Source: Candidatus Moranbacteria bacterium RIFOXYB1_FULL_43_19
Lineage (GTDB): Bacteria; Patescibacteriota; Minisyncoccia; Moranbacterales; UBA11712
DNA length: 64,000 nucleotides
Assembly (NCBI GenBank): GCA_001784875.1
Contig: MFSH01000008.1
Coordinates: forward strand, 1,555-65,554
Reading direction: 5' to 3'
Of the stretch, positions 1-64,000 are shown one piece after another (positions within the stretch are counted from its first letter, which is position 1; every line of letters begins with the position of its first letter). The notes beneath the pieces are model-generated. The model saw nothing but the letters and a program-made list of their open reading frames with translations, was not told where the DNA came from and ran no database searches. A program made the translations under genes and the position numbers.

Positions 1-1339
1 AATATTTATACATTTTCGAATCATTTTCCAAAGCTAAGCTTTTTGGATTAAAGCTCGGCTTTTCCCTTCCAAGAGCTAAGCTCTTGGAATTTCTCAAAGC
101 CAAGCTTTCGCTTAGTTTTTTATCGACTAAAACCTCGACAACCCTACCGATGTATTTTTTATTATTTACGAGTGCGGTGCGCGCGAGGATATTTGTGAGT
201 ATTTTTTCGCGGCGAACCTTTTCTTTTTTCGAAATATTATTTTTCAGCTTCCAAGCGGCGGTCTCGGAGCGGGGGGAATATTGGGAAATGTAAGCCATAT
301 CGAATTTCATTTCACGAAATAATTTTACCGTGTTTTCAAATTGTTTTTTGGTTTCGCCGGGGAAGCCGACGATGATGTCGGTGGAAACGGCTGGCGCTGT
401 GTCCGAAAGCTCAACTTTCGGAAATTTCCGAAAGTTGAGCTTTCGGATTTGATAAGTTTGGCGGATTTTTTTGATGAGATTTTTATAATGGGCAACCGTA
501 TAACGCCGGTTCATTTTGCGCAAAATTTCATTGTCTCCCGATTGGGCGGGGAGAGAAATATACTCGCAAATATTTTTTGATTTGACAATTGTTTCAATCA
601 GCTCGTCGGACATATCTTTGGGATGGGAGGTGAGAAAAGATAACCAAAACTTTCCCCGTATAGCGTCTATTGACTCTAACAAATCGGCAAAGCTAATAGT
701 TTTCTTTTTTGTATCTGGTATTTTGTATCTGGTATTTTGTATCTTTGATCTATAGGAATTTACATTTTGTCCAAGTAAAATAATTTCTTTATATCCTTTT
801 TGAACTAAACCTTTGATTTCTTCTAAAATATCTTCCGCCGGCCGCGAATACTCCCGGCCGCGGGCGTAGGGGACGACGCAGTAGGAGCAGAAATTGTTGC
901 AGCCGGTCATGATGGGAACATAGGCGGTATAGTTGTTTGAATATTTCGGTGTTATTTGGAGATAATTATTGCATGGCAAGGTTTTTATATTTAGTATCTG
1001 GTATTTAGTATTTAGTATTTTTTCAATTTCTTTTGGAAAAACTTTAATAGTTACAAATAGATCAGCTTTTTCTTTAAGTCTTCTCTGGACGTCTTTGCGG
1101 TGGGCAAGGCAGCCGGTGAGAATGATAAATTTCTTCGGATATTTTTTTCGGATATTGTTAATTTGCCCGTAAACCCGGTCTTCAGCTGATTGGCGAACTC
1201 CGCAGGTGACAAATATGACAAAGTCCGCCTCTTCTAGCGAGGCGGATTTTTTCAGCTTATATTTTTTTAAGATGGTTTCAATCCTTTCGGCGTCGGAATA
1301 GTTCATTTGACAACCGAAGATTTTGATATAGTAGGTCAT
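1..1339 (-). CDS. MiaB-family radical-SAM methylthiotransferase (MiaB/RimO-like); C-terminus runs off the window start
   Basis: The reverse-strand ORF starts at the ATG at 1339-1337. Its translation reads MTYYIKIFGCQMNYSDAE, VTCGVRQSAE, PIMTGCNNFCSYCVVPYARGREYSRP (the CxxxCxxC radical-SAM site), ILLGQNVNSY, ISLPAQSGDNEILRKMNRRYT, IIVGFPGET and MAYISQYSPRSE. No stop occurs before position 1. It is missing from the ORF track because it is edge-truncated. Confidence 0.75.
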   Translation of the reverse strand, partial: MTYYIKIFGCQMNYSDAERIETILKKYKLKKSASLEEADFVIFVTCGVRQSAEDRVYGQINNIRKKYPKKFIILTGCLAHRKDVQRRLKEKADLFVTIKVFPKEIEKILNTKYQILNIKTLPCNNYLQITPKYSNNYTAYVPIMTGCNNFCSYCVVPYARGREYSRPAEDILEEIKGLVQKGYKEIILLGQNVNSYRSKIQNTRYKIPDTKKKTISFADLLESIDAIRGKFWLSFLTSHPKDMSDELIETIVKSKNICEYISLPAQSGDNEILRKMNRRYTVAHYKNLIKKIRQTYQIRKLNFRKFPKVELSDTAPAVSTDIIVGFPGETKKQFENTVKLFREMKFDMAYISQYSPRSETAAWKLKNNISKKEKVRREKILTNILARTALVNNKKYIGRVVEVLVDKKLSESLALRNSKSLALGREKPSFNPKSLALENDSKMYKY

Positions 1340-13404: not shown

Positions 13405-13487
13405 ATTTGTAATTTGGATATTTTGAATACTCTCATATATGCATATGTGCATATATGAGAGTGTGCGCACTACGATATATCGTAGTG
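13381..13487. repeat. family D 3'-end element (GATGTAATTCGTAATTTGTGAATTTGTAATTTGG plus two perfect hairpins)
   Basis: The element overlaps the last codons and stop of the GT4 gene. The hairpins CTCTCATATATGCA/TGCATATATGAGAG and CACTACGATATATCGTAGTG follow. A paralogous copy lies at the uvrA 3' end. Confidence 0.5.
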
Positions 13488-13914: not shown

Positions 13915-15093
13915 ATGATTTCGAATCACTCTATCACAACTAATAAACTTCGTCAAGGATTCAAAGTGGCTCTTGTCCACGATTTTCTGAACCAACACGG
14001 CGGGGCGGAGAGGGTGCTTTTGGCGTTGCACGAGATATTTACCGAAGCGCCGATTTATACTTTGCTTTATGACCCTCAAAAAATGCGGGGGAAATTCAAG
14101 GACGCCGACGTTCGGCCGTCGTTCCTTCAAAAATTTCCGAAGTTTTTGAAAAAGCGACATAAGTGGCTTTTGCCTCTTATGCCGACTGCGCCGGAGACTT
14201 TCAACCTTCGGGATTTTGATCTGGTGATTTCTTCTTCGAGCGCTTTCGCCAAGGGAATAATAGTCAAACCAAAAACAATTCACATCTGCTACTGCCACAG
14301 CCCCATGAGATACGCCTGGGATTGGAACGAAAAATATCTCGACGAGCAGGGGCTGGGCACGAAAAGACGGATCCTGGCGCGGCTTCTTCTCAATTATGTC
14401 CGGATGTGGGACAAAGTGGCGGCGGACCGGGTGGATTTTTTCATCGCCAATTCAAAATATACCAGGGAGAGAATAAAAAAATACTATGGCTGCGAAAGTG
14501 CGGTCGTTTATCCGCCAGTGGATATTTCTTCCAAGACTAAATCTGGGAGCGATTTCCAAGACTTAGTCTTGGAAAAACGGGGTTACTTTTTGATTGTTTC
14601 CCGGCTATCGCCATACAAGAAAGTTGAAATCGCCGTGGAAGCCATGAACAAATTGAATCTTCCGCTCTTGGTAATTGGAGAAGGTTCTCCGAAATACGTG
14701 AAATACCTGAAATCAATCGCGGGGCCGAAAACGAAATTTCTGGGATTCCTACCGGATGAAATGATAAAAAAATATTTTTTCGGATGCCGAGCCTTCATTT
14801 TTCCGGGAGAAGATGATTTTGGAATCGCACCGGTTGAAGCCATGTCTTTTGGAAAGCCGGTGATTGCTTTCCGGCGGGGAGGAGCCATGGAAACGGTTGT
14901 CGAAGGAGAAACGGGAGAATTTTTTAACGAGCCAACAATTGAAGTTCTGGCCGACGCGGTGCGCCGGTTCCAGGAAAATGAAAAAAATTATGACCCGGAA
15001 AAAATCCAGCATCAGGCGCAAAAGTTTTCAAAAGAAAAATTTCGGGAGCATTTTTTGGAGGAAATTGAAAAAATAATACAAATACGCGATTGA
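13915..15093 (+). CDS. GT4-family glycosyltransferase
   Basis: The N-terminus has KVALVHDFLNQHGGAERVL and the C-terminus has the EX7E motif (FPGEDDFGIAPVEAMSFGKPVIA). It carries an in-frame CCAAGACTTAGTCTTGG repeat at 14531-14572. The ATG at 13915 is preferred over the TTG at 13858. Confidence 0.8.
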   Translation: MISNHSITTNKLRQGFKVALVHDFLNQHGGAERVLLALHEIFTEAPIYTLLYDPQKMRGKFKDADVRPSFLQKFPKFLKKRHKWLLPLMPTAPETFNLRDFDLVISSSSAFAKGIIVKPKTIHICYCHSPMRYAWDWNEKYLDEQGLGTKRRILARLLLNYVRMWDKVAADRVDFFIANSKYTRERIKKYYGCESAVVYPPVDISSKTKSGSDFQDLVLEKRGYFLIVSRLSPYKKVEIAVEAMNKLNLPLLVIGEGSPKYVKYLKSIAGPKTKFLGFLPDEMIKKYFFGCRAFIFPGEDDFGIAPVEAMSFGKPVIAFRRGGAMETVVEGETGEFFNEPTIEVLADAVRRFQENEKNYDPEKIQHQAQKFSKEKFREHFLEEIEKIIQIRD

Positions 15094-20876: not shown

Positions 20877-20970
20877 TAGCTGGTAGCTAGTATATGGTAT
20901 CTGGTATATTTTTTTTGATATCAATAAAATAAAATACTAAATACTAAATAACAGATACCAAATACAAGTC
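20874..20970. repeat. family B repeat (GGTATCTGGTAT / ATACTAAATACTAAATA...GATACCAAATAC)
   Basis: The same motifs occur in-frame in the MiaB-like gene at 711-750 and 983-1024. Confidence 0.45.
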
Positions 20971-29967: not shown

Positions 29968-30711
29968 ATGAAAAATTTATTTAAGAAAATAATTCAGCAT
30001 TATCTGAAATTATTTACCAAAATCATTCTTTGGCGGCACAAGCCGTTCATTGTAGCTGTGGCCGGAAGTACGAACAAGACCACGACCAAAGACTACATTC
30101 TCAAATTTCTGCGGGAAAAATACGGAGAAAAAGAGGTCCGGGGAAACCCGAAATCCTACAATACCGAAATCGGACTGCCTCTGGCGATCCTTTATCTTAA
30201 TTCCGGCGAATCCTCGGCGCTGCGCTGGCTGAAAATTCTTGTCCAGGCCAAAATACGGGCCCTGTTCGGACGAAAATTCCCTAAAAAACTGGTGCTTGAG
30301 TTTGGCGTGGAGGAAAAAGGGGATATGAAATATCTTCTTGAAATGGTTCGGCCGAACGTAGCTATCGTCACCAATATTGAAGGGAGCTATACCTACTCAA
30401 ATTCAGGCCTTGAAAAAATTTTTGAAGAAATGAAGATTATGGCGGAAAATATTCCCAAGGATGGATATATTCTTCTCAATGCTGATGACGAGCGGGTGAA
30501 TGGGCTTAAAAAACACACGAAAGCGAAAACGTTCACCTATGGATTTTCCGAGAATGCGGATGCCCGGGCGGAAAATTTGAAAACCGACGCCCAGGGCCAG
30601 ACATTCGGTTTTGTTTTTCAGGGCAAAAAAGAGTTTGTCCGGATAAAAAAATACGGCCGGACGAACATATATGCCTGGATGGCAGCAAAAGTGGTGAAAA
30701 ATATTTTGTGA
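29968..30711 (+). CDS. Mur-ligase-family protein with the central ATPase domain only; short and possibly truncated
   Basis: The P-loop reads VAVAGSTNKTTTKDYI, close to the Mur ligase GTNGKTT motif. At 247 aa it has no C-terminal domain. Confidence 0.5.
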   Translation: MKNLFKKIIQHYLKLFTKIILWRHKPFIVAVAGSTNKTTTKDYILKFLREKYGEKEVRGNPKSYNTEIGLPLAILYLNSGESSALRWLKILVQAKIRALFGRKFPKKLVLEFGVEEKGDMKYLLEMVRPNVAIVTNIEGSYTYSNSGLEKIFEEMKIMAENIPKDGYILLNADDERVNGLKKHTKAKTFTYGFSENADARAENLKTDAQGQTFGFVFQGKKEFVRIKKYGRTNIYAWMAAKVVKNIL

Positions 30712-30748
30712 AAGCGTAATTCCTAAGATCGGATCTTAGGAAAAAAAT

Positions 30749-36661: not shown

Positions 36662-39187
36662 TTGTGGTATAATTCTGGAAAAGAAAAGAAAATTTTTTCC
36701 ATGGTAAACAAAAAACCATCACAAACGGGCGGGAGAATTGAAGTTGGTACAATATCGCCAACTGGACCAGCTAGGCAAGTTGAAAATCCAGAAAAAAAAG
36801 AGCTCAAGTTGACCAAAGAAGAGGAAAGAAAAATCGCCCAAGACATCCAAATTCTTTCCGGAAAATACGATTTTGCCAAACTTTTGCGGCAAAAGGGTTT
36901 CGATGTGACAGATACAGACGGAGAAGAATTCAGAATATTTGTTTTGAACAATATGGGTGATCTTCAGGGCGCCCTGCTGTCATATTTGGAAGAAGAATAT
37001 GGGACGCAAAAATTGAAGCAAGAAATTCTTGGAAACGGAAACCTTGCAAGCGAATTTTTTGAAGCTGAAATGGAAAAACAGACGGGAGAATATTATTGCA
37101 AATTTTTGAACAGCCAGAATGAATTGAGTGAAAAACAAGGCCGGAATTTTGACCGGATGAACCTTGAGAAACACTCAGATGTTGTTTTGAAATCAGCGGC
37201 AGAAGTCCTGTCAGAAGCCGTGGACCAAAAAGAGCTGAAAGAAAAAATAGAAGCAGCTGTCGAGGAAAAAATTCAAAAAATTATGCAAGCCATGGACGGG
37301 CTGGATCAAGACGGGTTGCGAAAAAGTGGAGTGGATCCGGACGCTCTCGAAGCAGAAAAGAAATCTTTCTTAGAAAAGGAGAAACAGAAAATTATCGAAC
37401 ATTGTCTGGAAAGATTCCAAAAAGGTTCTGAAGCGGGACCACTGCCTCAAGATCCCGAACAAATTGTTTTTTGGACGAACTATTTCACGAACTCCGCTTT
37501 CAGCCATAAGGGTGACGAAAATCTCCGGAAGGCCTTCGGAAAAGCGTTTCCAAAAACTGTGGGCGGGACAGAAAAATCCGAAATGGACAACAGGGCGGAT
37601 CCCAATGCCACTCCCGAGAGGTTGATTGCCGAACACGGGCTATATAGCGCCAAAACGCCGAATTTGGATGAAATGCTGGGAAAAAGTCCTTCTAAAGAAG
37701 AAGCTTTGCAACGGCTCAAAGAAAATATGCGCAAGTTTTTGGATGATTTCACGACGCACGGGATGCTCGGTCCCCCCGATCCGGAAACAGGAGAGCGCCA
37801 AATTTTGCCGCGGTCTGATCTGGACGGACAGGCTTGCGTGCTGCTTCTCAAAAAAGCGGGCTTCAATTTGGACAAATTGAAATACGTGAAACAGGGCGAG
37901 GAGCCGGAATCGGGCTGGGCATTTGACATAACCAAGGAGCACGGCTATGTCCTGAAAGACGGAGGCCGGGTTCTCATCACCAACGATTCAAACAAAGAAT
38001 CCGGAAAAGACAGTTCGGCCAAGTTTATCTTCGAGGGGCTCAAAAATTTTGGCCTGCTTGACCAGATTGGAAAAGAGGAAATGAAGGCTCTTGAAAAATT
38101 TGTCGAATTTGTGACAAAAGAAGACAACAAAGACTACACCGACCACGAAGCGAAGCAAATCATTGACCATTATCCCAAAAATCTGGCGGGACTGCGCAGA
38201 TTCTTGACGGACGAGGACTTGCTTCGGGTTTTTGAAGAACAGGTAAAGGAAAAAAAATATTTCAACCCATATATGGCTTTGCCGGGCATATATCTGGAAA
38301 ATCTTTCCTATCGCGATCCGGCAACGGGCGAACCGATGAAATTCGAGCAGGTTTCGAAAAAACTCCATAATTCCAAAAAATATTCTTTGGAATCGATCAG
38401 CGATTCGGAGAGCAAGGGATTCTTCATTGACACGGGCGACGGGCGTTTTGGAAAAGTTTTGATTGACTCCGGAAGGCTCGACGCGCAGGGAGTCCGGAGA
38501 AGAAAAATCGGCTTGGGTTATGATGCAGCGAGAAGCGAGGGATTTGGAGCCTATGTGGTTTTTGACGAAGAAGGCAAATATTTTTCCGTCCAAACCGTGA
38601 AAGACATGGACTTTGAATTTGGTCAGGGAATGGAAGTTAGCAAGCGGTATTGGCTTTTCACAGGAGACAGGAAATTGGAGGTGAATCTGGAGGAAATACT
38701 CAAAAAATTGAGTGGCAATCCGGATTATCAGATGGAAGCCGGTCTCAAAGAAGCTCTGGAAAAAGAGAAAAAAGAAATTGAAGAAACAGAAAAAAGAGTG
38801 AATCTTCTCTTTGATGGGTTGAAAATCGGGGCGATTGAAGCAGGAATGCCCGAAGATATTTCCGCCCTTTCAGGCGAAGAAAAAAAGAAAGCCGAGGCGA
38901 AATTCAGGCTTCTGGAAGAAACAAAAACGCTTGCGCGGAAGATTGCGGGCGCTGTATCAGTGAAGGATGTCGAATATTTTTTGGCGAGCGTCTTGGGAGA
39001 GAAAAACTTTGAACAATATGCCAGTTTGAGGGACAAGGAAACAGATCCGGGAAAAAGAGAAAGATTTGGCAATGTAGTCAAAAAAGCATCGCGTGATTTT
39101 TTGGAAAAAAGAGGCTATAATAAGGATGAAGCAAAACAAGTTGTCAACTTATTTTTCAAAATAACGGATCTAAGGTTTACCAAATAA
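36662..39187 (+). CDS. large hypothetical protein (841 aa, highly charged, no TM)
   Basis: A clean ORF, first of a same-strand block that ends in a T4CP-like ATPase. Confidence 0.5.
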   Translation: MWYNSGKEKKIFSMVNKKPSQTGGRIEVGTISPTGPARQVENPEKKELKLTKEEERKIAQDIQILSGKYDFAKLLRQKGFDVTDTDGEEFRIFVLNNMGDLQGALLSYLEEEYGTQKLKQEILGNGNLASEFFEAEMEKQTGEYYCKFLNSQNELSEKQGRNFDRMNLEKHSDVVLKSAAEVLSEAVDQKELKEKIEAAVEEKIQKIMQAMDGLDQDGLRKSGVDPDALEAEKKSFLEKEKQKIIEHCLERFQKGSEAGPLPQDPEQIVFWTNYFTNSAFSHKGDENLRKAFGKAFPKTVGGTEKSEMDNRADPNATPERLIAEHGLYSAKTPNLDEMLGKSPSKEEALQRLKENMRKFLDDFTTHGMLGPPDPETGERQILPRSDLDGQACVLLLKKAGFNLDKLKYVKQGEEPESGWAFDITKEHGYVLKDGGRVLITNDSNKESGKDSSAKFIFEGLKNFGLLDQIGKEEMKALEKFVEFVTKEDNKDYTDHEAKQIIDHYPKNLAGLRRFLTDEDLLRVFEEQVKEKKYFNPYMALPGIYLENLSYRDPATGEPMKFEQVSKKLHNSKKYSLESISDSESKGFFIDTGDGRFGKVLIDSGRLDAQGVRRRKIGLGYDAARSEGFGAYVVFDEEGKYFSVQTVKDMDFEFGQGMEVSKRYWLFTGDRKLEVNLEEILKKLSGNPDYQMEAGLKEALEKEKKEIEETEKRVNLLFDGLKIGAIEAGMPEDISALSGEEKKKAEAKFRLLEETKTLARKIAGAVSVKDVEYFLASVLGEKNFEQYASLRDKETDPGKRERFGNVVKKASRDFLEKRGYNKDEAKQVVNLFFKITDLRFTK

Positions 39188-39199
39188 AAAATAAATTTT

Positions 39200-41389
39200 A
39201 TGGGGCTCAAATACAAAGTTTTAGAAACAGGGAAAGTAGCACCTCCTCGGCAGTCTCAATCTCCCGATCCGGATCCAAAATCCCAGGATCAATCACGGGA
39301 TATAAATGCGGAGCAGAGCGCAGAAATACCCACGGTCAATCTCGAAGTGTCTTCCGGGGAACCGGCAGGTGAGCCAGCGACACCTGCCACTCCCGAAGCC
39401 GATTCCGTTGCAGCGTCTGCTGATGTTCCTGAAACTCCTTCCAAAAAACCGGCAGGCGAGCCGGTTGCTCCTCCAGCTCCGGAATCCGAAACCGAAAGAA
39501 AAAACCGCGAGGACCTTAATAGAATACAGAAAGAATTTGATGAGAATGAAAAGAAAATAGCCGAAGCGAGGGCGAAAAATTTCAAAAGATGGAGAACAAT
39601 TGGCGAAGCATTGGGCTTGATTAAGAGGCCGGTTGATGAAGGCGATGATGTCAAGGAATATCTTGAGAGAAGAGGAGCTCTTTATAAGGCTTTGAGGGTA
39701 TCCGGAGTAAACGCGTTTAGAGGCAAAAACGAAGATCTTCAGAATTTTTTGACTGAATATGACAAAAGTATGATTGCTGTCAGAACCAGGACCTGGGAGA
39801 TGGATACCAGAGCGGGAAATGCAAAATGGTATGACAAGGCCTTTGTCAAATTCGCGAACGTCAGCAAAAATTATAGGGAGTTCATAGGCAAACAATTTCT
39901 CAATGAGAAAGGGAAGTTGAGCGCCAAAGGAATTTTCAAGGGAACAGCGATTGCAGCTTCAGTGTCCATAGCTATCGCGACGGCTTTGGGCGCAGCCTTG
40001 CCGGCCTTGGGGATTGCCGCTGTCGGCGCTGCTGGGACGACCGCTTGGGGCATGCGGATTTTTGGAGGCGTCGGAGCTGGCTATGCCGCCAAAAAGCGAA
40101 TGGAAGCTGGATTTTTCGAAAAGACCAAAAAAGATGTTGAGAGAAGAGTTTTGGATGCGGTTGAATCGATGAAAAATAAAACTGATGAACAATGGAAGGG
40201 TTATATTGAAGGTTTGGAAATGACTAGTGAGAAAAAATTAAAAGGCATATTAGAGGGAGAAGAGCACAAATTCGCAGATGTGGACGCCAAGCACAAAAGA
40301 TATGCTTTGGCCATCGGTTCGGGGACTGTAGTTGCCGGAGCTCTTGCAAGCCATTATATTATGCCTCATGCCAGAGGAATATTCGGTCAAACTTGGGAAA
40401 AAATAACAAATTCATTTGGTGACGGGAAAACCGGTTTCTATGAATCGTCGCACAGTCCGGTTTCTGATGCGGTTGTTCCGGAAAAGACAGGAGGGCCGTT
40501 TTTGGGCGATTCGCACAGGATCAAATCCGGTGAAAATGTCTGGAAAGTGACGAGGGAGATGTATATAGAGCACGCGAAGGAATATGATCTTAAGCCGGAT
40601 GATCCGAAAATCAAAAATCTGTTCCATTCACTCAAAAAACAGGGTTTCTTGGGCCGGATGGGGATTAATGCCGAAAATTTCAATGATTTGTCAGACGCCG
40701 AAAAAATAAAAATCCTCGCGGAAAACAAAACCGCCAATGCGATGGAATGGTATAAGTCCCATCACGGAGGAAAATTGCCGTCAGCGGTCAGAGAAGGCTG
40801 TACGGTTACTCTGGACGACAAAGGAAAATTGTTTGTAGAGGACATTTCGCAGATCAAGGCCGGAGCCGTTCATCACGAGCCAACTCATAGCGCTGGAAAG
40901 GCGGCTACGGCAGCGGAACATCATGGACGGGGCGGCAGAGGAGCAGTTGATACGAGCGAATTCGATCGGAGAATAGAAGATGCTCGGGAACGTGGAGCAG
41001 CGGCGGAAGCTTTTGGCAGGAGTGAAGTTGCGCGGCTCGGAGCGGAGGCTCAAGCCTTGAATGAACAGGCTGTTGCGGGCCTTACCAGCGCCAACGCGCG
41101 GCTTTGGAACAGCTGGCTTGAAAATCTGGGAGGTTTCAAGCTCAACACGCCGGCTTCTCAAATTCAAGAAGCTATCGGCCGTTTTAGTCCGGGAATCACA
41201 AGTGACATGCCGCTTGCGCCAACTGCCGAGGAAATGACTCAAAGGGCAAGTGCGGTCAATTTCACACAGGAAACTTTTCAAAAATTTCCGCCTCTCAATG
41301 CTCGGGAAACGATGCAGCAATATCTAGAACGGATGTCGCGAACCAGTTTCAACCTTTTCAAGGCCTTGAGCATAAAAAACAGACTTTAA
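39200..41389 (+). CDS. hypothetical membrane protein with a Pro/Glu-rich N-terminus and an Ala/Gly-rich TM hairpin
   Basis: The TM region reads GTAIAASVSIAIATALGAALPALGIAAVGAAGTTAWGMRIFGGVGAGYAA. It starts 12 nt after the upstream ORF. Confidence 0.5.
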   Translation: MGLKYKVLETGKVAPPRQSQSPDPDPKSQDQSRDINAEQSAEIPTVNLEVSSGEPAGEPATPATPEADSVAASADVPETPSKKPAGEPVAPPAPESETERKNREDLNRIQKEFDENEKKIAEARAKNFKRWRTIGEALGLIKRPVDEGDDVKEYLERRGALYKALRVSGVNAFRGKNEDLQNFLTEYDKSMIAVRTRTWEMDTRAGNAKWYDKAFVKFANVSKNYREFIGKQFLNEKGKLSAKGIFKGTAIAASVSIAIATALGAALPALGIAAVGAAGTTAWGMRIFGGVGAGYAAKKRMEAGFFEKTKKDVERRVLDAVESMKNKTDEQWKGYIEGLEMTSEKKLKGILEGEEHKFADVDAKHKRYALAIGSGTVVAGALASHYIMPHARGIFGQTWEKITNSFGDGKTGFYESSHSPVSDAVVPEKTGGPFLGDSHRIKSGENVWKVTREMYIEHAKEYDLKPDDPKIKNLFHSLKKQGFLGRMGINAENFNDLSDAEKIKILAENKTANAMEWYKSHHGGKLPSAVREGCTVTLDDKGKLFVEDISQIKAGAVHHEPTHSAGKAATAAEHHGRGGRGAVDTSEFDRRIEDARERGAAAEAFGRSEVARLGAEAQALNEQAVAGLTSANARLWNSWLENLGGFKLNTPASQIQEAIGRFSPGITSDMPLAPTAEEMTQRASAVNFTQETFQKFPPLNARETMQQYLERMSRTSFNLFKALSIKNRL

Positions 41390-41407
41390 TATTTAGAAAA
41401 CAAAACA

Positions 41408-41746
41408 ATGACAACAAAAAACACAATCATGCAGGAAACAATCGTTGAAGAATTGGGACTCACGGATTTGCCTGAAGAGCAAAAATCCAAAGTTCTGGTG
41501 AATCTCCTGGAGTTGGTTTTGAAGCGCCTTTATATGGAGACAATGGACAAACTGTCGCCGGAAGACCAAAAGGAACTGATGAAAATAATTGATGAAAAAG
41601 GGGAACCGGACAGAATTGAAAAATTCCTTCGCGAGAAAATTAGCGATTATGACGAATTTGTGAAAAAAGTGGTGAGCGACCTGAAAGACGAGCTGAAAGA
41701 AGACATCGCCGGCTTTGGAAATGCGGAGGAAGCGACAAAGAGCTGA
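41408..41746 (+). CDS. hypothetical small acidic protein
   Basis: A clean ORF that starts 18 nt after the upstream ORF. Confidence 0.4.
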   Translation: MTTKNTIMQETIVEELGLTDLPEEQKSKVLVNLLELVLKRLYMETMDKLSPEDQKELMKIIDEKGEPDRIEKFLREKISDYDEFVKKVVSDLKDELKEDIAGFGNAEEATKS

Positions 41747-41949
41747 AAGTTGATATGGAAATAGCGACGCTTTTGGCGTAATTTCTAATTTCTGATACCC
41801 AATTTCCAATAAAATGTCCAATATTAAAAATTAAAATTTTTGTAATTGGGCATTTAGATTTTTATTAGAAATTAGATGTTAAATATTGGAATTTTGACGG
41901 GAAGTTTATTTACGGTGATATTGCATAAATAAATATTTACGGATCTTTT

Positions 41950-42474
41950 ATGGCACAACAATTATATCAGGAGCCTATCGAAAAGGAGGATTTGGATTTG
42001 GCGAAAAAGTTAAAAAGTGATATTCCAGCCGCGGGCGCAGGAAAAGTACCAGAAAATGTGGAAACGAAAAAAACGGAAATTACTGAAATTCCGGAAGTAC
42101 CGGTGCCGGAGGCTGAAAAAGCCACGGGAGTTGAATCTGAAATGGGAGGAGAAAAAAAGGCCGAGGAAGTTTCCGAAAAAATTGAAACCGTCCGGAAATC
42201 GATCCAAACCCAAAAACCGACGGCCGGGGCGAGCGTGGCTTCGGACGCGGGAACAGTTTCGCAAATCACAGAATATGAAAAAAAAGTGGAAAAACTGGTC
42301 GAAATGGCGCTCCAAAAAGGCCCGGAGCACGCGATCAAAGTCGCGCGGCACATGGACAAAGGAAAGTCTCCCAGCCAGGCGGATAACTATACCCTCGATG
42401 AAATCCACGACCGTCTTTTGGAAGAGAGTCTTCGAAAACAACTTATTCAGAAAGGACTATTAAAAGAATTATAA
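41950..42474 (+). CDS. hypothetical acidic protein
   Basis: A clean ORF flanked by AT-rich spacers. Confidence 0.4.
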   Translation: MAQQLYQEPIEKEDLDLAKKLKSDIPAAGAGKVPENVETKKTEITEIPEVPVPEAEKATGVESEMGGEKKAEEVSEKIETVRKSIQTQKPTAGASVASDAGTVSQITEYEKKVEKLVEMALQKGPEHAIKVARHMDKGKSPSQADNYTLDEIHDRLLEESLRKQLIQKGLLKEL

Positions 42475-42621
42475 ATTTTTAATTTAGAATTTCGAAATAA
42501 TTTCAAATGATATAATTTTGAAACATTAAAGCATTGGAACATTATTTCAAAATTAAAAATTGGAAATTCAAAATTGTATATCAGAATATTCTTCTTAAAA
42601 TAAAAACAAAAACATATTTAG

Positions 42622-45156
42622 ATGGATGTATATAATTTGAACTTGATAATGTATCCCCTTGCTTTTCTTTTGGCCGCGCTAAGCTTTGGTTCGGCGTTTT
42701 TGATGATTTTCAAAAGCTTTGTTTCTTTTCGCGCTGAAATCACCCGGTCGCTTAATATGGATATTGACATTGTCAAAGTTTCGCGGTCACTCAAAGCCCA
42801 GAATCCGCAGGCGCAGCAGCAGCAGCCGAAAAATGACAAAGAGCTTATTTCCGTAACGGAACATCTTTTCGCGAGCCTCGGGAATATCAAGGAAAAAACC
42901 GGAATTTTCCATCGGCTGATCTATGGCGATGCGGTTATATCCCTTGAAATCGCCAATCCGGCGAGCGGAGATGAGATTTGTTTTTTTGTCGGGGCGCCAA
43001 AAAAATTTATCAATATAGTCGAACGCCAGATTCATAGCTTTTATCCCAAAGCAGCCATCGAAAGGGTAAAAGATTACAATATTTTCAATCCGGGAAGCTT
43101 CACGGCGGCATCGTACCTCAAGCTCAGTCAAAAAAATCATTTTCCGATCCGCACCTATCTGTCTTTGGAGTCCGATCCGCTCAACAATATCACCAATGTC
43201 CTTGGAAAATTTGATGAAAAAAAAGAAGGAGCGGCGATCCAGCTTCTGATAAAACCAGCTCGTGGCGATTGGAGGACCAAAGGGCGGGAAGTAGCTCATA
43301 AAATGCAGCAGGGGAGGCAACTTTCGGACGTGAAAAAAGACAGTTTTTTTCGAGAACTGTTTCGAGGATTCTTCAAAATAGCCGTGAAAAAAGATGACAG
43401 TCAGAAAAAAGATATTCTGAAAAGTGATAAAGATCCGGTGCAGCTGACACCTGAAGAACAGGAAATCATAAAAAAAATCGAGGGAAAGTCGAACAAGCCC
43501 GGATTTTTGGTCAACATCCGCCTCGTGGCTTCGGCCCTCACCCAGGAACGTTCCGAGCAGGTGCTGGCCGAACTTGAAAACGCTTTCATTCAATACGAAA
43601 ATCCCGGGCTGAACCGATTTCGGGTGTTGAGGGAAGACAAAATACGCAAAAAAAACATCGCTTTCGATTTCATTTTCCGGAATTTCAAAGACGACCAGGG
43701 AATGATTCTTTCCTCCGAAGAAGTGGCCAGCATATTCCATTTCCCTCTTTCTTCGACAGAAACGCCGAAAATTTCCTGGCTCAAGTCCCGCACGGCCTCT
43801 CCGCCTTCGAATATTTCCAAGGAAGGAATCAAAATTGGCTACAATGACTATCGCGGAGTGGAAACGGTCATCCGGCACAACGCTGACGATCGTCGCCGCC
43901 ATTTCTATATCATTGGTCAAACCGGAACCGGAAAATCGACCATGATCCAGGAAATAGTGAAGCAGGACATCAAAAACGGTGAGGGGGTCTGCGTGATCGA
44001 TCCGCACGGCGATCTGGTTGACCACATCATTGAATCCATTCCCAAAGAGCGGGCGGAGGACGTCATTTATTTTGACCCGGCCGATATAGAGAGGCCATTC
44101 GGGCTCAATATGCTTGAATTCGACCATGCCAAACCGGAGCAAAAGACTTTTGTTATTAATGAGATGATCAACATTTTTGACAAGCTCTATGACCTCCGCC
44201 AGACAGGTGGGCCGATGTTCGAGCAGTATATGCGCAATGCCGCTCTTCTTGTCATGGAACACTCCGAATCCGGCGCAACACTAATGGAAATTCCGCGCGT
44301 TCTCGCCGACGAAGAATTCCGTCATATGAAACTTTCCCATTGCACAAACCCGGTCGTCAAGAATTTCTGGGAAAAAGAAGCTGAAAAAGCGGGGGGCGAA
44401 GCGGCGCTGGCCAACATGGTTCCCTATATCACTTCAAAACTCACCCAGTTCATTTCGAACGACATGATGCGCCCGATCATCGCCCAGGAAAAAAGCACCA
44501 TCAATTTTCGGCGGGCAATGGATGACCGGCGGATAGTTCTTGTCAATCTTTCCAAAGGAAAAATCGGAGAAATAAACGCCAACCTTTTGGGTATGATTAT
44601 TGTCGGAAAAATTTTGATCGCGGCTCTTTCACGGGTGGACACGCACGAAGAAGGGCGCAAAGATTTCTATCTCTATATCGACGAATTCCAAAATTTCACG
44701 ACCGATTCAATCGCCCAGATTCTTTCCGAAGCCCGCAAATACCGCTTATCACTTATCATAGCCCACCAGTTCATTGCCCAGCTCAAGGAGGAAATTTCGA
44801 AGGCTGTTTTCGGAAACGTTGGTTCAATCTGCTCATTTCGCATCGGGGCCGAAGATGCCGAGTTTGTCCAGAAGCAGTTCGAGCCGGTTTTTGACGCCAA
44901 CGACCTCATGAATGTTGATAACCGGAATTGCTTCATGAAACTTTTGATCGCGAGCCAGGTGGCGCCGCCGTTCAATATGAAAACTTATCCACCGACTGTC
45001 GGCAATCCGAAGATTGCCGAAGCCATCAAAGAGCTTTCCAAGTTGAAATATGGCAGGAACCGTGATATAGTGAATGAGGAGATCATGAAAAAGGCGGCAT
45101 TTGTCGCCGCTGCTCCGACGGCCGACGCGTTTGATATGGGAGAAAAGCCTTTGTGA
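42622..45156 (+). CDS. type IV secretion coupling protein-like ATPase (VirD4/TraG/TraD family) with an N-terminal TM segment and a ~390 aa unrecognised domain
   Basis: The Walker A motif reads RHFYIIGQTGTGKST. A T4CP-type VCVIDPHGD (DPKGE-like) motif follows. The Walker B motif is FYLYIDEFQNF and the C-terminal ARKYRLSLIIAHQFIAQL block is present. Confidence 0.7.
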   Translation: MDVYNLNLIMYPLAFLLAALSFGSAFLMIFKSFVSFRAEITRSLNMDIDIVKVSRSLKAQNPQAQQQQPKNDKELISVTEHLFASLGNIKEKTGIFHRLIYGDAVISLEIANPASGDEICFFVGAPKKFINIVERQIHSFYPKAAIERVKDYNIFNPGSFTAASYLKLSQKNHFPIRTYLSLESDPLNNITNVLGKFDEKKEGAAIQLLIKPARGDWRTKGREVAHKMQQGRQLSDVKKDSFFRELFRGFFKIAVKKDDSQKKDILKSDKDPVQLTPEEQEIIKKIEGKSNKPGFLVNIRLVASALTQERSEQVLAELENAFIQYENPGLNRFRVLREDKIRKKNIAFDFIFRNFKDDQGMILSSEEVASIFHFPLSSTETPKISWLKSRTASPPSNISKEGIKIGYNDYRGVETVIRHNADDRRRHFYIIGQTGTGKSTMIQEIVKQDIKNGEGVCVIDPHGDLVDHIIESIPKERAEDVIYFDPADIERPFGLNMLEFDHAKPEQKTFVINEMINIFDKLYDLRQTGGPMFEQYMRNAALLVMEHSESGATLMEIPRVLADEEFRHMKLSHCTNPVVKNFWEKEAEKAGGEAALANMVPYITSKLTQFISNDMMRPIIAQEKSTINFRRAMDDRRIVLVNLSKGKIGEINANLLGMIIVGKILIAALSRVDTHEEGRKDFYLYIDEFQNFTTDSIAQILSEARKYRLSLIIAHQFIAQLKEEISKAVFGNVGSICSFRIGAEDAEFVQKQFEPVFDANDLMNVDNRNCFMKLLIASQVAPPFNMKTYPPTVGNPKIAEAIKELSKLKYGRNRDIVNEEIMKKAAFVAAAPTADAFDMGEKPL

Positions 45157-50196: not shown

Positions 50197-50295
50197 CCTT
50201 AAATGGGGGATTTTTGTGTTAGGGATATGAATTTAGCGCGGAGAATCCTAAAGCTAAACTTTAGGAGCGCCTAAAGTTTAGCTTTAGGGGAAAAT

Positions 50296-50377
50296 ATGGA
50301 TAAAATAATCATTCGCGGAGCTCGCGAGCACCCCGAAGTATAACGCTTCGCGTTAACTACGGGGCAAGCAATTTGAT
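50296..50377 (+). promoter_or_regulatory. uvrA leader: a 15-codon uORF (MDKIIIRGAREHPEV) mimicking the UvrA N-terminus, overlapping a conserved hairpin element (50331-50370)
   Basis: The uORF ATG at 50296 has a GGGGA SD and its stop lies at 50341-50343. Its first 12 codons are synonymous or conservative variants of the uvrA start at 50378. The hairpin CCCCGAAGTATAACGCTTCGCGTTAACTACGGGGCAAGC has a paralog at 55392-55436. Confidence 0.35.
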
Positions 50378-53254: not shown

Positions 53255-53325
53255 TTTGTAATTGGGATAATTTTCACTACAACTAGTTGTAGTGAGTTTT
53301 ACTACTATATATAGTAGTAAAATAA
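53231..53325. repeat. family D 3'-end element (GACGTAATTCGTAAATCGTAATTTGTAATTGGG plus two perfect hairpins)
   Basis: It supplies ...DVIRKS-stop to uvrA. The hairpins CACTACAACTAGTTGTAGTG and TTTACTACTATATATAGTAGTAAA follow. Confidence 0.5.
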
Positions 53326-54043: not shown

Positions 54044-55342
54044 ATGTCAATGCAAACCATAAAATCTAAAATCTCCAATCTCCCCAAATCTCCCGGTGTA
54101 TACGAATTTCGCGATAAGCAAGGGAAAATTCTTTATATTGGGAAAGCAACGAGTCTTAAGAGCAGGGTGGGGAGCTATTTCGGAAATTTTTCCAAGACTA
54201 AGTCTTGGAAAACCACAAAACTTAGTCTTGAGAGAGGGCCACGGATTGTTGAAATGGTCTCGCGAGCTACAGAAGTAAAAATCCATGAAACCGATTCGGT
54301 TCTCGAAGCCTTGATTTTGGAATCGAATCTCATCAAAAAGTACCAGCCGAAATATAATGTGATGGCGAAAGATGACAAGAGTTTTGGCTATTTTGTGATC
54401 ACCAAAGAAAAATTTCCGCGAGTGGTGATTTTCTGGAAAACGGAGCTGGGGAAAGTGCCGGCAAAAAAAATATACGGGCCGTATCTATCAAAATATCAAA
54501 TGAATATTGCTCTGAAACTGATTCGCCGAATTTTTCCGTTTCATTCCAACAAGCAGCAAACCGAAAAAGGGTGCCTTGATTTCCAAATCGGCCGGTGTCC
54601 CGGACCGTACGTGGGAGCTATTACGAAAAAAGATTATCTCAAAAATATCCGCAATATCGAGATGATACTCCGAGGCGAAAAAAAGCGGCTCGTCAGCTCG
54701 CTTAAAAAAGAAATGAAAAATTGCGCGAAGAACCACGAATTCGAAAAGGCCGCCGAAGCCCGCAACCGAATTTTCGCGCTCGAACATATCAGGGATGTTG
54801 CATTGATAAACCAAGACTTAGTCTTGGAAAATTCCAAGACTAAGTCTTGGGGAAGGATCGAGGCCTATGATATTTCCAATATCGGCGGTGATTATGCGGT
54901 TGGTTCGATGGTCGTTTTCACGAACAGCAAAGCGGATAAAAACGAATATCGTAAATTCAAAATCAAAACAGTCATTGGTGTTGACGATGTTGGTATGATG
55001 AAAGAAGTTTTAGCTCGGCGTTTTAGGAATAATTGGCCGAAACCGGACCTGATTCTCCTCGACGGGGGGAAGGGCCATCTCAATATGGCCCAGAAAATAA
55101 TGGAGGAATTGAAACTCGAAATCCCGATCATTGCTGCTGCCAAAGGGCCGACACGAAAAAAAATCGATATCTACCAGTCAAAATACCTCTTGACATATCT
55201 TGGTCGAAATGAGGAAATAAGGGAGAGGTATAACAGTATATTGAGTGATGCGAAGCTAATCGAGAGAATTCGCAACGAAGCCCATCGCTTTGCGATCAGT
55301 TATCACAAGAAATTACGACAGAAAAATTGGAAAAGTAGATAA
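54044..55342 (+). CDS. uvrC: excinuclease ABC subunit C, short form lacking the C-terminal (HhH)2 domain
   Basis: The GIY-YIG module (GVYEF...ILYIGKA), a UVR domain (EFEKAAEARNRIFALEHI) and an RNase-H-like endonuclease domain are present. Two in-frame CCAAGACTAAGTCTTGG insertions lie at 54192-54232 and 54811-54851. Confidence 0.8.
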   Translation: MSMQTIKSKISNLPKSPGVYEFRDKQGKILYIGKATSLKSRVGSYFGNFSKTKSWKTTKLSLERGPRIVEMVSRATEVKIHETDSVLEALILESNLIKKYQPKYNVMAKDDKSFGYFVITKEKFPRVVIFWKTELGKVPAKKIYGPYLSKYQMNIALKLIRRIFPFHSNKQQTEKGCLDFQIGRCPGPYVGAITKKDYLKNIRNIEMILRGEKKRLVSSLKKEMKNCAKNHEFEKAAEARNRIFALEHIRDVALINQDLVLENSKTKSWGRIEAYDISNIGGDYAVGSMVVFTNSKADKNEYRKFKIKTVIGVDDVGMMKEVLARRFRNNWPKPDLILLDGGKGHLNMAQKIMEELKLEIPIIAAAKGPTRKKIDIYQSKYLLTYLGRNEEIRERYNSILSDAKLIERIRNEAHRFAISYHKKLRQKNWKSR

Positions 55343-63243: not shown

Positions 63244-64000
63244 TTACTCCTTCACAATCTTGCCACCGAAAATGTCGACGGCTTCCTGCAGAAGGCTTTT
63301 TTTCTCTTTGAAATCGGGATATTGGGCGGAAAAATCTTTTTCAGTGACGGCTTTCAACCGCAAATTAACGCCCGTTATCTTATCAATCGCTTTCTCTATT
63401 GTCAACCGGTTCTGGGTGTCGGAAATTTTGTCGTTATAAAAAGAGTATTTCGTTTTGAGAATGAGATATTTTCCGTCAATCAGAGCCGGCTGGGACATTT
63501 TGAGGACTGAGGAAAGGGAATGGTTGTAGCTTTTGAGAGACTCGATAATTTCCGTCCATTGGGAAACAATGAGATTGAAATCCTCGCTTGAATTTCCAGG
63601 ACTTTTATTTTCAGATTTCGCAGCCGTTTCTTTCACCTCTTGCTTTCCTGAAATATCCGTTTTTTTCTTTGCCGAAGGTTCAACCTTCGGAAGCGCGGTT
63701 TGCGCAATTTCTCTTTTAGGGGTCGGATCTCTAAATTCAGCAGGTTTGCTGCGGATTGTTTTGGCGAGGCTTACTTCCAAAAATAATTGGGGAATGGGGC
63801 TGTTGCGAAATTTTTCGATATTTTCCTGAAGAATATTGATCAGATCCAAAATCTCGGCAAGTTCTATGTTATTGATTTGATCATTTATTTGTTCGAGCCT
63901 TTCTTTTGTGAGTTCATATGACAATTTTTTCCCAAGTTCCGGGTTTATTTTGAGAACGAGCATTTGGCGAAGATAATTGAGCAAAGATTTTCCAAAATTT
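63244..64000 (-). CDS. dnaX: DNA polymerase III subunit gamma/tau, C-terminal portion; N-terminus lies beyond the window
   Basis: The frame stays open to the window edge. The C-terminus (...LQEAVDIFGGKIVKE) resembles the DnaX C-terminal domain and the middle section is coiled and charged. No AAA+ region is visible in the window. Confidence 0.55.
   Translation of the reverse strand, partial: NFGKSLLNYLRQMLVLKINPELGKKLSYELTKERLEQINDQINNIELAEILDLINILQENIEKFRNSPIPQLFLEVSLAKTIRSKPAEFRDPTPKREIAQTALPKVEPSAKKKTDISGKQEVKETAAKSENKSPGNSSEDFNLIVSQWTEIIESLKSYNHSLSSVLKMSQPALIDGKYLILKTKYSFYNDKISDTQNRLTIEKAIDKITGVNLRLKAVTEKDFSAQYPDFKEKKSLLQEAVDIFGGKIVKE

Follow-up and report, generated by a model that had tools for sequence, protein, structure and literature searches.

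A perfect palindrome in frame within miaB of a Moranbacteria genome is probably a REPIN-like mobile doublet linked to RAYT-like transposase genes

RESULTS

The miaB locus and its palindrome

The DNA analyzed here (the window) is a stretch of 64,000 nucleotides (nt) from Candidatus Moranbacteria bacterium RIFOXYB1_FULL_43_19 (contig MFSH01000008.1), and its left end carries most of a miaB gene that contains, in frame, a perfect palindrome at positions 402 to 447. As set out below, this palindrome is probably a mobile doublet resembling those formed by repetitive extragenic palindromic (REP) sequences, known as REP doublets forming hairpins (REPINs), and is of a hairpin type linked to genes resembling REP-associated tyrosine transposases (RAYTs). 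The gene and the palindrome are as follows.

1-1339, minus strand: miaB, 446 of 487 codons in the window; start codon at 1339, with 41 further codons beyond the left edge; open reading frame (ORF) intact, all Fe-S cysteines kept
402-447, no strand assigned: perfect 46-nt palindrome inside miaB, an inverted doublet of a 19-nt hairpin unit; units at 403-421 (loop CTCAA) and 428-446 (loop TTGAG), spacer AAATTT

The extended locus was recovered using the neighboring ThrRS gene, which yielded six contigs, four of them with the whole of miaB. The gene stands after thrS, and its stop end overlaps by 4 nt (13281-13284 in contigs L001 and L002) with miaA, located immediately downstream. A first-pass annotation of this DNA, made from the sequence alone, had allowed for a pseudogene or an assembly artefact. 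The complete gene has 487 codons and is open up to a stop 41 codons to the left of the window, with no frameshift or premature stop, and is therefore not a pseudogene; the 1,339 nt of miaB in the window were identical in four independent assemblies derived from different samples and assemblers (L001, L002, L005, and L006), hence the sequence is not an artefact. A fifth contig, L003, which ends inside miaB, also has the 402-447 palindrome.

All six cluster cysteines of MiaB (FGCQMN, VTCGVR, TGCLA, and GCNNFCSYC) and the IIVGFPGET motif were kept, as was every residue invariant across 27 orthologs. Pfam identified the UPF0004 and radical-SAM domains; the TRAM domain, recognized in MiaB orthologs, is split by an insert in this protein. 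The closest solved structure was MiaB of Bacteroides uniformis (7MJV; E value, 3.9e-62), and in comparison with it the query has ∼17 extra residues exactly at the palindrome. The domains, the 7MJV match, and the adjoining miaA agree with the first-pass identification of a MiaB-type radical-SAM gene, and by its sequence this is a genuine MiaB methylthiotransferase gene that looks to be working. The enzyme had also been called essential; miaB is dispensable in model bacteria. A profile search of genome contigs with the MiaB alignment returned only distant MiaBs (Clostridia and other phyla) and no Moranbacteria DNA.

The sequence at 402-447 (TCCGAAAGCTCAACTTTCGGAAA followed by TTTCCGAAAGTTGAGCTTTCGGA, reading TCCGAAAGCTCAACTTTCGGAAATTTCCGAAAGTTGAGCTTTCGGA) is its own reverse complement over 46 nt. 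A perfect palindrome of 44 nt at 403-446 had been noted previously; the palindrome stands, but its length was 2 nt short. Each arm is a hairpin in its own right, CCGAAAG-loop-CTTTCGG, and the loops CTCAA and TTGAG of the two units are mutual reverse complements. When folded as RNA, 402-447 was predicted to form a 21-bp stem of −36.9 kcal/mol (z = −12), and 0 of 200 shuffles were as stable. The 19-nt arm has seven matches at ≤3 mismatches, against 0.03 expected, and perfect stems of ≥10 bp number 11 in the window versus 1.1 in dinucleotide shuffles (4 versus 0 for stems of ≥15 bp). As both the arm matches and the stems exceed expectation, the palindrome is not due to chance.

On the minus strand, the palindrome is read in frame as I-RKLNFRKFPKVELS-D, providing residues 298 to 313 of the 487 in MiaB (IRKLNFRKFPKVELSD). 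These directly precede the STDIIVGFPGET motif, and the palindrome thus lies in frame between the radical-SAM core and the IIVGFPGET motif, where it had been placed from the start.

Recurrent insertions at the orthologous site

The segment between MNRxY and STD, which spans the palindrome site, was measured over 120 listed MiaB homologs. In 42 of 42 distant homologs it was 27 to 28 amino acids (aa) long (21 aa in one), with the ancestral form AYKKYKPxxxPxI, compared with 30 to 54 aa in 45 of the 73 measured closest homologs, in which at least seven unrelated peptide families occur. DNA was examined at the palindrome site of seven orthologs: six carried six different long perfect or near-perfect palindromes (−24 to −43 kcal/mol), and one had no insert. 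Where the palindromes of orthologs P0002 and P0006 differ by a substitution, the opposite arm carries the compensating change. The loop CTCAAC is found with two different stems, CCGAAAG/CTTTCGG and CGAAGG/CCTTCG.

Four insertion sites in MiaB

Alignment of the 27 orthologs (65 to 75% identity over aligned columns) revealed four hypervariable indel blocks, corresponding to two family B repeats, the 402-447 palindrome, and a hairpin cluster in the TRAM domain. An AlphaFold model of MiaB (protein P0001; predicted local distance difference test [pLDDT], 76) contained five low-confidence segments, four of which are the four inserts and the fifth the Fe-S cluster loop. The palindrome site is the helix-to-strand connection before the STDIIVGF strand, a connection that in radical-SAM barrels would be on the face away from the active site.

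28-108, no strand assigned: composite nested palindromic insert in the TRAM domain; imperfect hairpin 28-46, outer arms 50-62 (AAAGCTCGGCTTT) and 96-108 (AAAGCCAAGCTTT), inner hairpin 67-89 (TTCCAAGAGCTAAGCTCTTGGAA); encodes LSESLALRNSKSLALGREKPSFNPKSLALEN
700-752, no strand assigned: family B repeat, built of tandem GTATCTGGTATTT units and read in frame as KIQNTRYKIPDTKKK; unstructured as RNA
983-1021, no strand assigned: another family B repeat, read in frame as KILNTKYQILNIKT; most orthologs have similar peptides at the site

The first-pass annotation had counted at least four repeat insertions in the gene, and four separate, repeat-derived, in-frame inserts were indeed found, coinciding with the four ortholog indel sites. 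Its two in-frame family B repeats (711-750 and 983-1024) are real, with the extents given above; the repeats it described at 15-110 near the 3′ end also exist, but they occupy the TRAM domain and not the 3′ end. The family B repeats have a folding energy of 0 kcal/mol as RNA and are a class of repeat distinct from the hairpins. Family B peptides, of the type N-T-K-Y-Q-I-L-D-T-K, are common to most MiaB orthologs at the first site and to several of the closest at the second, and an inverted pair of the family B repeat lies in the mreB-mreC spacer (window 20887-20968).

The 28-108 cluster folds as RNA into a nested palindrome of −40 kcal/mol. Its outer frame recurs in leuS of the source genome (L133:11680-11785) around a different inner hairpin, and, judged from the peptide, the composite element is also present at the palindrome site of ortholog P0036. 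The miaB and leuS copies agree in their outer arms, AAAGCTTGGCTTT / AAAGCCGAGCTTT, and have different inner hairpins (CCAAGAGCTTAGCTCTTGG versus CCGAAAGTTCAACTTTCGG); the composite may have arisen from a hairpin inserted into the center of another hairpin, or it may be a modular element. In ortholog P0016, the miaB gene has the same 42-nt doublet twice (L091, 5850-5891 and 6167-6210), the enclosing perfect palindromes measuring 42 and 44 nt, and the core of this doublet is identical to window positions 63672-63690 in a dnaX-like ORF. The doublet present twice in P0016 miaB, together with the composite element in leuS, indicates that whole doublets are copied between sites. Judging from these comparisons, a few permissive loops are occupied again and again by hairpin elements.

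The hairpin family across the window

Hairpins with the outline TTCC-stem-loop-stem-GGAA, mostly as inverted doublets, were found at ∼10 sites in the window, and at 8 of these they lie in an ORF that is not interrupted. Family cores were counted at 12 positions in the window, and other contigs of the genome have more of them. Paired inverted units that form a long hairpin, the arrangement that defines a REPIN, were present at 402-447 and at four further positions (14526-14577, 50246-50288, 54188-54235, and 54811-54850). The hairpin family is thus multicopy, is dispersed in the source genome and in related genomes, and is copied as a doublet. Besides the elements in miaB, the copies were as follows.

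14526-14577, no strand assigned: slightly decayed family A doublet (CCAAGACTWAGTCTTGG) in a GT4 glycosyltransferase gene, in frame as SSKTKSGSDFQDLVLE
30720-30742, no strand assigned: single intergenic hairpin TTCCTAAGATCGGATCTTAGGAA, with a Mur-ligase fragment on one side and ftsQ on the other
50246-50288, no strand assigned: perfect doublet of family CCTAAAGCTAAACTTTAGG, intergenic, upstream of uvrA
54188-54235, no strand assigned: family A doublet whose second unit is degenerate; GIY-YIG region of uvrC, in frame as NFSKTKSWKTTKLSLE
54811-54850, no strand assigned: perfect 40-nt family A doublet in uvrC, in frame as QDLVLENSKTKSW
63672-63690, no strand assigned: single hairpin CCGAAGGTTCAACCTTCGG in the dnaX-like ORF, in frame as LPKVEPSA

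At the site equivalent to 14526-14577, the homologous GT4 gene in another metagenome (L099) has a different doublet. One hairpin is read in all three stop-free frames (as SKTKSW, QDLVLE, and LRLSLR); the encoded peptide therefore appears to be incidental to the DNA element and not itself the object of selection. Rfam and tRNA scans of the window identified only two tRNAs, and no known RNA family over the hairpins.

Several other features of the window were recorded. Just upstream of the uvrA start at 50378 (MNKIIIKGAREH...) is a short ORF, ATGGATAAAATAATCATTCGCGGAGCTCGCGAGCAC (50296-50377), encoding MDKIIIRGAREH, a duplicate of the UvrA N terminus, followed by a stop and a CCCCG...CGGGG hairpin; it looks like a duplicated gene start created by insertion. 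A second set of perfect palindromes is intergenic and contains GTAG (ACTCTCATATATGCATATGTGCATATATGAGAGT, CACTACGATATATCGTAGTG, TCACTACAACTAGTTGTAGTGA, and TTTTACTACTATATATAGTAGTAAAA; window 13429-13487 and 53274-53322, and L088:20649-20670). One of these, TCACTACAACTAGTTGTAGTGA, is identical in another Moranbacteria contig, and the set may represent terminators or another REP family. The ORF at 29968-30711 (247 aa) matches only the middle domain of Mur ligases and ends immediately ahead of the 30720-30742 hairpin; possibly, a gene has been truncated or split here, beside the repeat. Positions 36662-45156 hold a cluster of large ORFs without a Pfam match, then a TrwB/VirD4-like coupling-protein ATPase (42622-45156), and may constitute a secretion or DNA-transfer module.

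Distribution in metagenomes

Metagenomes were scanned with the pattern CCGAARGYTCAACYTTCGG, which describes the hairpin only; the counts given here are among the matches listed. On low-GC contigs there were 21 doublets and 35 singles. Fourteen of the doublets lay inside ORFs of at least 150 codons, and 14 of the singles were followed by a T-run, like intrinsic terminators. The genes hosting doublets include those for GT4 (where the site is that of the window copy), Pth, FolD, LeuRS, LysRS, a family-4 glycosyltransferase, RNase HII, TatD, a metallophosphoesterase, an HMA-domain protein, and another MiaB, in which the site is different. Many matches on high-GC contigs proved to be one recurrent terminator-like context (GACAAAAAGGATCCCGAAAG...) and were excluded as unrelated, and the five matches on viral contigs included no doublets. 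The singles with a T-run are found at gene ends in a terminator-like position (among the singles of L094 to L211, e.g., L128:208-238, L199:110-138, and L114:5343-5369); in these genomes, terminators and the mobile hairpin family may have a common origin.

RAYT-like genes and their cognate hairpins

One of the doublet hosts was a Y1_Tnp (IS200-like) protein, whose gene (L096) has further hairpins of the family on either side. More than 2,400 homologs of this protein were retrieved, several labeled "REP element-mobilizing transposase RayT" by the Joint Genome Institute, and among them was P0195 of the source genome. That genome has two RAYT-like genes, for P0195 and a 220-aa paralog, on one contig (L217 to L219).

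L219:1681-2407 and L219:9026-9764: the two RAYT-like genes of the source genome, each bracketed by and containing its own hairpin family

The two proteins scored 25.6 and 29.7 bits with Pfam Y1_Tnp, against a cutoff of 23. In an alignment of 35 homologs led by P0195, from which the 220-aa paralog was left out, the YHxxNRG and NHxH (HUH) motifs were invariant and a Tyr was conserved. The best PDB match of the P0195 model (pLDDT, 88.7) was 4ER8, the E. coli REP-associated tyrosine transposase with a REP hairpin (E value, 1.5e-5), followed by the IS608 and ISDra2 transposases. Using phmmer, P0195 gave nothing meaningful against PDB sequences, and the kinship with RAYTs was apparent only in the fold comparison. 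Between the two RAYT-like genes lies a giant gene, which is one 2164-aa ORF in two assemblies and two ORFs (913 and 1237 aa) in the third (L217:6385-12890, compared with L218:6932-13426 and L219:2502-8996); strain variation or an assembly difference may account for this.

Gene 1 of the source genome has TTTCCAAGACTTAGTCTTGGAAA before its start, TCTTTTCCAAGACTAAGTCTTGGAAAAGA in frame inside, and TTTCCAAGACTTAGTCTTGGAAA in frame at its end. These hairpins belong to family A (CCAAGACTTAGTCTTGG), exactly the family found in uvrC and the GT4 gene of the window. In gene 2, these three positions are taken by hairpins of the CCTAAAGGAAACCTTTAGG type. When the recovered loci were searched with a profile, RAYT-like genes were found in 13 low-GC loci that had been obtained by the hairpin pattern alone. 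Of 13 RAYT-like genes examined, 11 had a cognate hairpin at two or three of these positions, with a sequence that is private to the gene and covaries with it. In L144, from a different organism, the sequences on either side of the RAYT-like gene, TTCCGAAAGCTCAACTTTCGGAA and TTCCGAAAGTTGAGCTTTCGGAA, are identical to the arms of the 402-447 palindrome. The hairpin families are thus physically and specifically linked to RAYT-like Y1/HUH genes, two of which are in the source genome.

The three places taken by cognate hairpins (in the L219 genes and in L096, L128, L154, L198, and L114) are just upstream of the start, in frame inside the gene, and at or just after the 3′ end. The in-frame hairpin falls at protein positions ∼60 to 75, a segment present in 35 of 35 aligned homologs, and its location within the RAYT-like coding sequence suggests self-regulation. 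The tetranucleotide CGTC is present in the hairpins bracketing some RAYT-like genes of other contigs (L096 and L168).

DISCUSSION

Interpretation of the miaB palindrome

Taken together, the data favor the view, to which we assign a probability of about 0.72, that the miaB palindrome is a nonautonomous mobile doublet of the REP/REPIN type, composed of two short inverted hairpins, linked to a RAYT, and colonizing coding sequence. It is read as REPIN-like because the inverted doublets, the compensatory arm changes, and the family-specific, bracketed RAYT match the REPINs described by Bertels and Rainey (PMC3116915). The mover is most likely a REP-type tyrosine transposase encoded in the same genome.

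A sequence of events can be proposed. The RAYT-like enzyme would recognize the hairpin on single-stranded DNA, and the HUH/Tyr enzyme would cut and then reinsert the doublet, as has been proposed for REPINs. Insertions in genes would persist only if the frame was kept, stops were avoided, and a dispensable surface loop was hit; in miaB, the spare loop would be the helix-to-strand connection before the STDIIVGFPGET strand. The arms would stay complementary if only intact hairpins are substrates, with young copies being perfect and replacing decayed ones, of which 14526-14577 and 54188-54235 would be old examples. Copies that are in frame, stop free, and located in loops would then be the residue left by selection.

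Several points weigh against this interpretation. In the source genome, no RAYT-like gene bracketed by the exact 402-447 family was found, that of L144 belonging to another organism, and Pfam annotation of the 47 window ORFs identified no transposase, including no DDE transposase. The only NCBIfam match of the RAYT-like proteins was REP_Tyr_transpos, at 18 to 30 bits against a cutoff of 80; a score so far under the cutoff would place them in a distant RAYT branch. Mobilization of the repeat by a RAYT-like enzyme is something we infer from association only. Neither a target motif nor a target-site duplication was found at the insertion borders of the window copies. At the palindrome site the insert adds 11 aa (+33 nt) net, less than the 46-nt palindrome, and some ancestral sequence must therefore have been replaced. 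No empty-site allele, which would define the insertion boundaries and any target motif, was found in a close relative. Finally, two textbook features of REPs are missing: the elements are mostly intragenic (8 of ∼10 in the window) instead of extragenic, and the GTAG/CGTC end tag is absent from the families of the window, which end in TTCC...GGAA.

Alternative explanations

The hairpins could instead be signals in mRNA or DNA selected by the host, such as an RNase III site, an mRNA stabilizer, a translational pause between domains, or an attenuator. A 21-bp stem of −37 kcal/mol could serve such a role, palindromes recur at the same site in many orthologs with the P0002/P0006 substitutions compensated, and intergenic single units with T-runs resemble intrinsic terminators (14 of the 35 singles among the matches listed). 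A conserved signal is nevertheless difficult to reconcile with a site at which about one-third of the close orthologs and all of the distant ones have no insert, and at which unrelated palindrome families are found. The same element also occurs in unrelated genes and in intergenic DNA, and its specific link to transposase-like genes requires no host function. We regard this explanation as unlikely.

It could also be argued that the palindromes arise in place, without transposition, through replication template switching (quasi-palindrome correction or extension) in a repair-poor genome. Perfectly complementary arms around a center of 0 to 6 nt, nested palindromes, the lack of a visible target-site duplication, and a net gain of 33 nt that differs from the length of the element would all fit this model. 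Template switching may help to keep the arms perfect, but it leaves the dispersal unexplained, as identical units of 17 to 44 nt are found at unlinked loci and in different genomes, and RAYT-like genes are bracketed by hairpins that match the doublet families; as the origin of the palindromes it is improbable.

A classical MITE (a miniature transposable element with inverted repeats), or an element of the Rickettsia palindromic element (RPE) type, moved by a DDE transposase via terminal inverted repeats, appears highly improbable. The resemblance lies in a small palindromic noncoding element in frame in housekeeping genes, as RPEs are in Rickettsia (PMC10969869). However, at 40 to 46 nt the element is far smaller than RPEs (∼100 to 150 bp) or MITEs (70 to 300 bp), the window copies have no target-site duplication and the window no DDE transposase, and the element consists solely of hairpins of the kind that bracket Y1-transposase genes.

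An assembly artefact or a decaying pseudogene, for which it might be said that chimeric reads can create palindromes and that the gene end is outside the window, was rejected given the four identical assemblies, the palindrome in the fifth, truncated contig, the 487 open codons, and the retention of all invariant residues.

Significance

Returning to the REPIN-like reading, a wider picture can be sketched tentatively, at somewhat less than even odds: Moranbacteria, and probably other members of the Candidate Phyla Radiation (CPR), would harbor REPIN-like doublets driven by a divergent RAYT clade, mainly intragenic and replacing one another at permissive loops of housekeeping enzymes, thereby continuing to generate lineage-specific protein insertions. 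In addition, the in-frame cognate hairpin of each RAYT-like gene suggests an enzyme that senses, or regulates, the gene encoding it.

By definition, REPs are extragenic, and work on REPIN/RAYT systems has been confined almost entirely to Proteobacteria; the REPIN-like population described here resides mostly inside genes of essential pathways, in a genome with almost no intergenic space. It would explain much of the length variation among CPR orthologs, such as that of MiaB homologs, which range from 408 to 549 aa (leaving out two MiaB-MiaA fusions of 756 and 793 aa) and vary mainly at four sites. Annotators and structure predictors should be aware that such segments are repeat derived. With a gene tied to a recognizable hairpin at three fixed positions, and with recent copies that can be identified, such as the doublet present twice in one gene, these genomes could provide a natural system for studying the role of RAYTs. 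They would also exemplify selfish DNA persisting in a streamlined genome by passing a filter for in-frame, loop-located insertions.

Comparison with known systems

Literature searches yielded no report linking RAYTs or REPINs, or palindromic or in-frame insertions, with CPR, Patescibacteria, or Parcubacteria. The closest likeness is to REPIN/RAYT systems (PMC5581495; 4ER8), with which the elements share short palindromic units arranged as inverted doublets folding into one long hairpin, compensatory arm changes, the doublet as the copied unit, and several families per genome, each tied to its own bracketed Y1/HUH transposase-like gene. They differ in that most copies here are within protein-coding genes and are translated, whereas in P. 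fluorescens only 14 of 1,067 16-mers overlap genes. The transposase-like gene here also carries its cognate hairpin in frame, and the host is an ultra-small bacterium of the CPR. The doublets are, moreover, only 40 to 46 nt long, AT rich, often perfect, and without a GTAG tag; typical REPINs are longer than this.

In REPs, one end of the hairpin carries a tetranucleotide tag, GTAG or CGTC (PMC3733652 and PMC6006769), and intragenic REPs of the GTAG/CGTC families, often dimers, that add ∼20 to 30 aa have been reported by Di Nocera, De Gregorio, and Rocco in 2013 (PMC3733652). As in our case, known proteins have units and dimers contained completely in their ORFs, certain genes carry two insertions, and many of the copies are in replication or repair genes (uvrA and uvrB there; uvrC and dnaX here). 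However, those intragenic copies are a minority of tagged, mainly intergenic families, in contrast to the untagged, intragenic majority found here (8 of ∼10 in the window and 14 of the 21 metagenome doublets among the matches listed).

Like the present elements, the RPEs of Rickettsia (Ogata et al. 2000, via PMC10969869) are selfish palindromes of a reduced genome that keep the reading frame of the unrelated housekeeping genes they occupy, at points that the protein fold can accommodate; RPEs are ∼150 bp long with a conserved peptide per family, compared with 20 to 46 nt and any stop-free frame here. The coding palindromes of Nematomorpha mitochondria (Mikhailov et al. 2019, PMC6649704) are also perfect inverted repeats in functional genes with both arms translated, but there the arms encode conserved protein regions, with no dispersed family or transposase, whereas here the insert is dispensable and the repeat dispersed. 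IS200/IS605 TnpA and its derivatives with hairpin ends (2VJV and 2XMA), the second-best structural matches, have the same protein fold, produce no target-site duplication, and recognize hairpins on single-stranded DNA, as the RAYT-like proteins may do by analogy. Unlike them, the RAYT-like genes do not belong to insertion sequences whose left and right ends are distinct, no tnpB is located nearby, and the repeats are far shorter than an insertion sequence.

Intragenic REP dimers and the RPEs of Rickettsia are therefore known precedents. Three aspects appear to be undescribed, namely, the occurrence in the CPR, the location mainly within genes, and the presence of an in-frame hairpin in the transposase gene, and the elements are further distinguished from the known systems by their lack of a GTAG/CGTC tag and by the turnover of families at orthologous loops.

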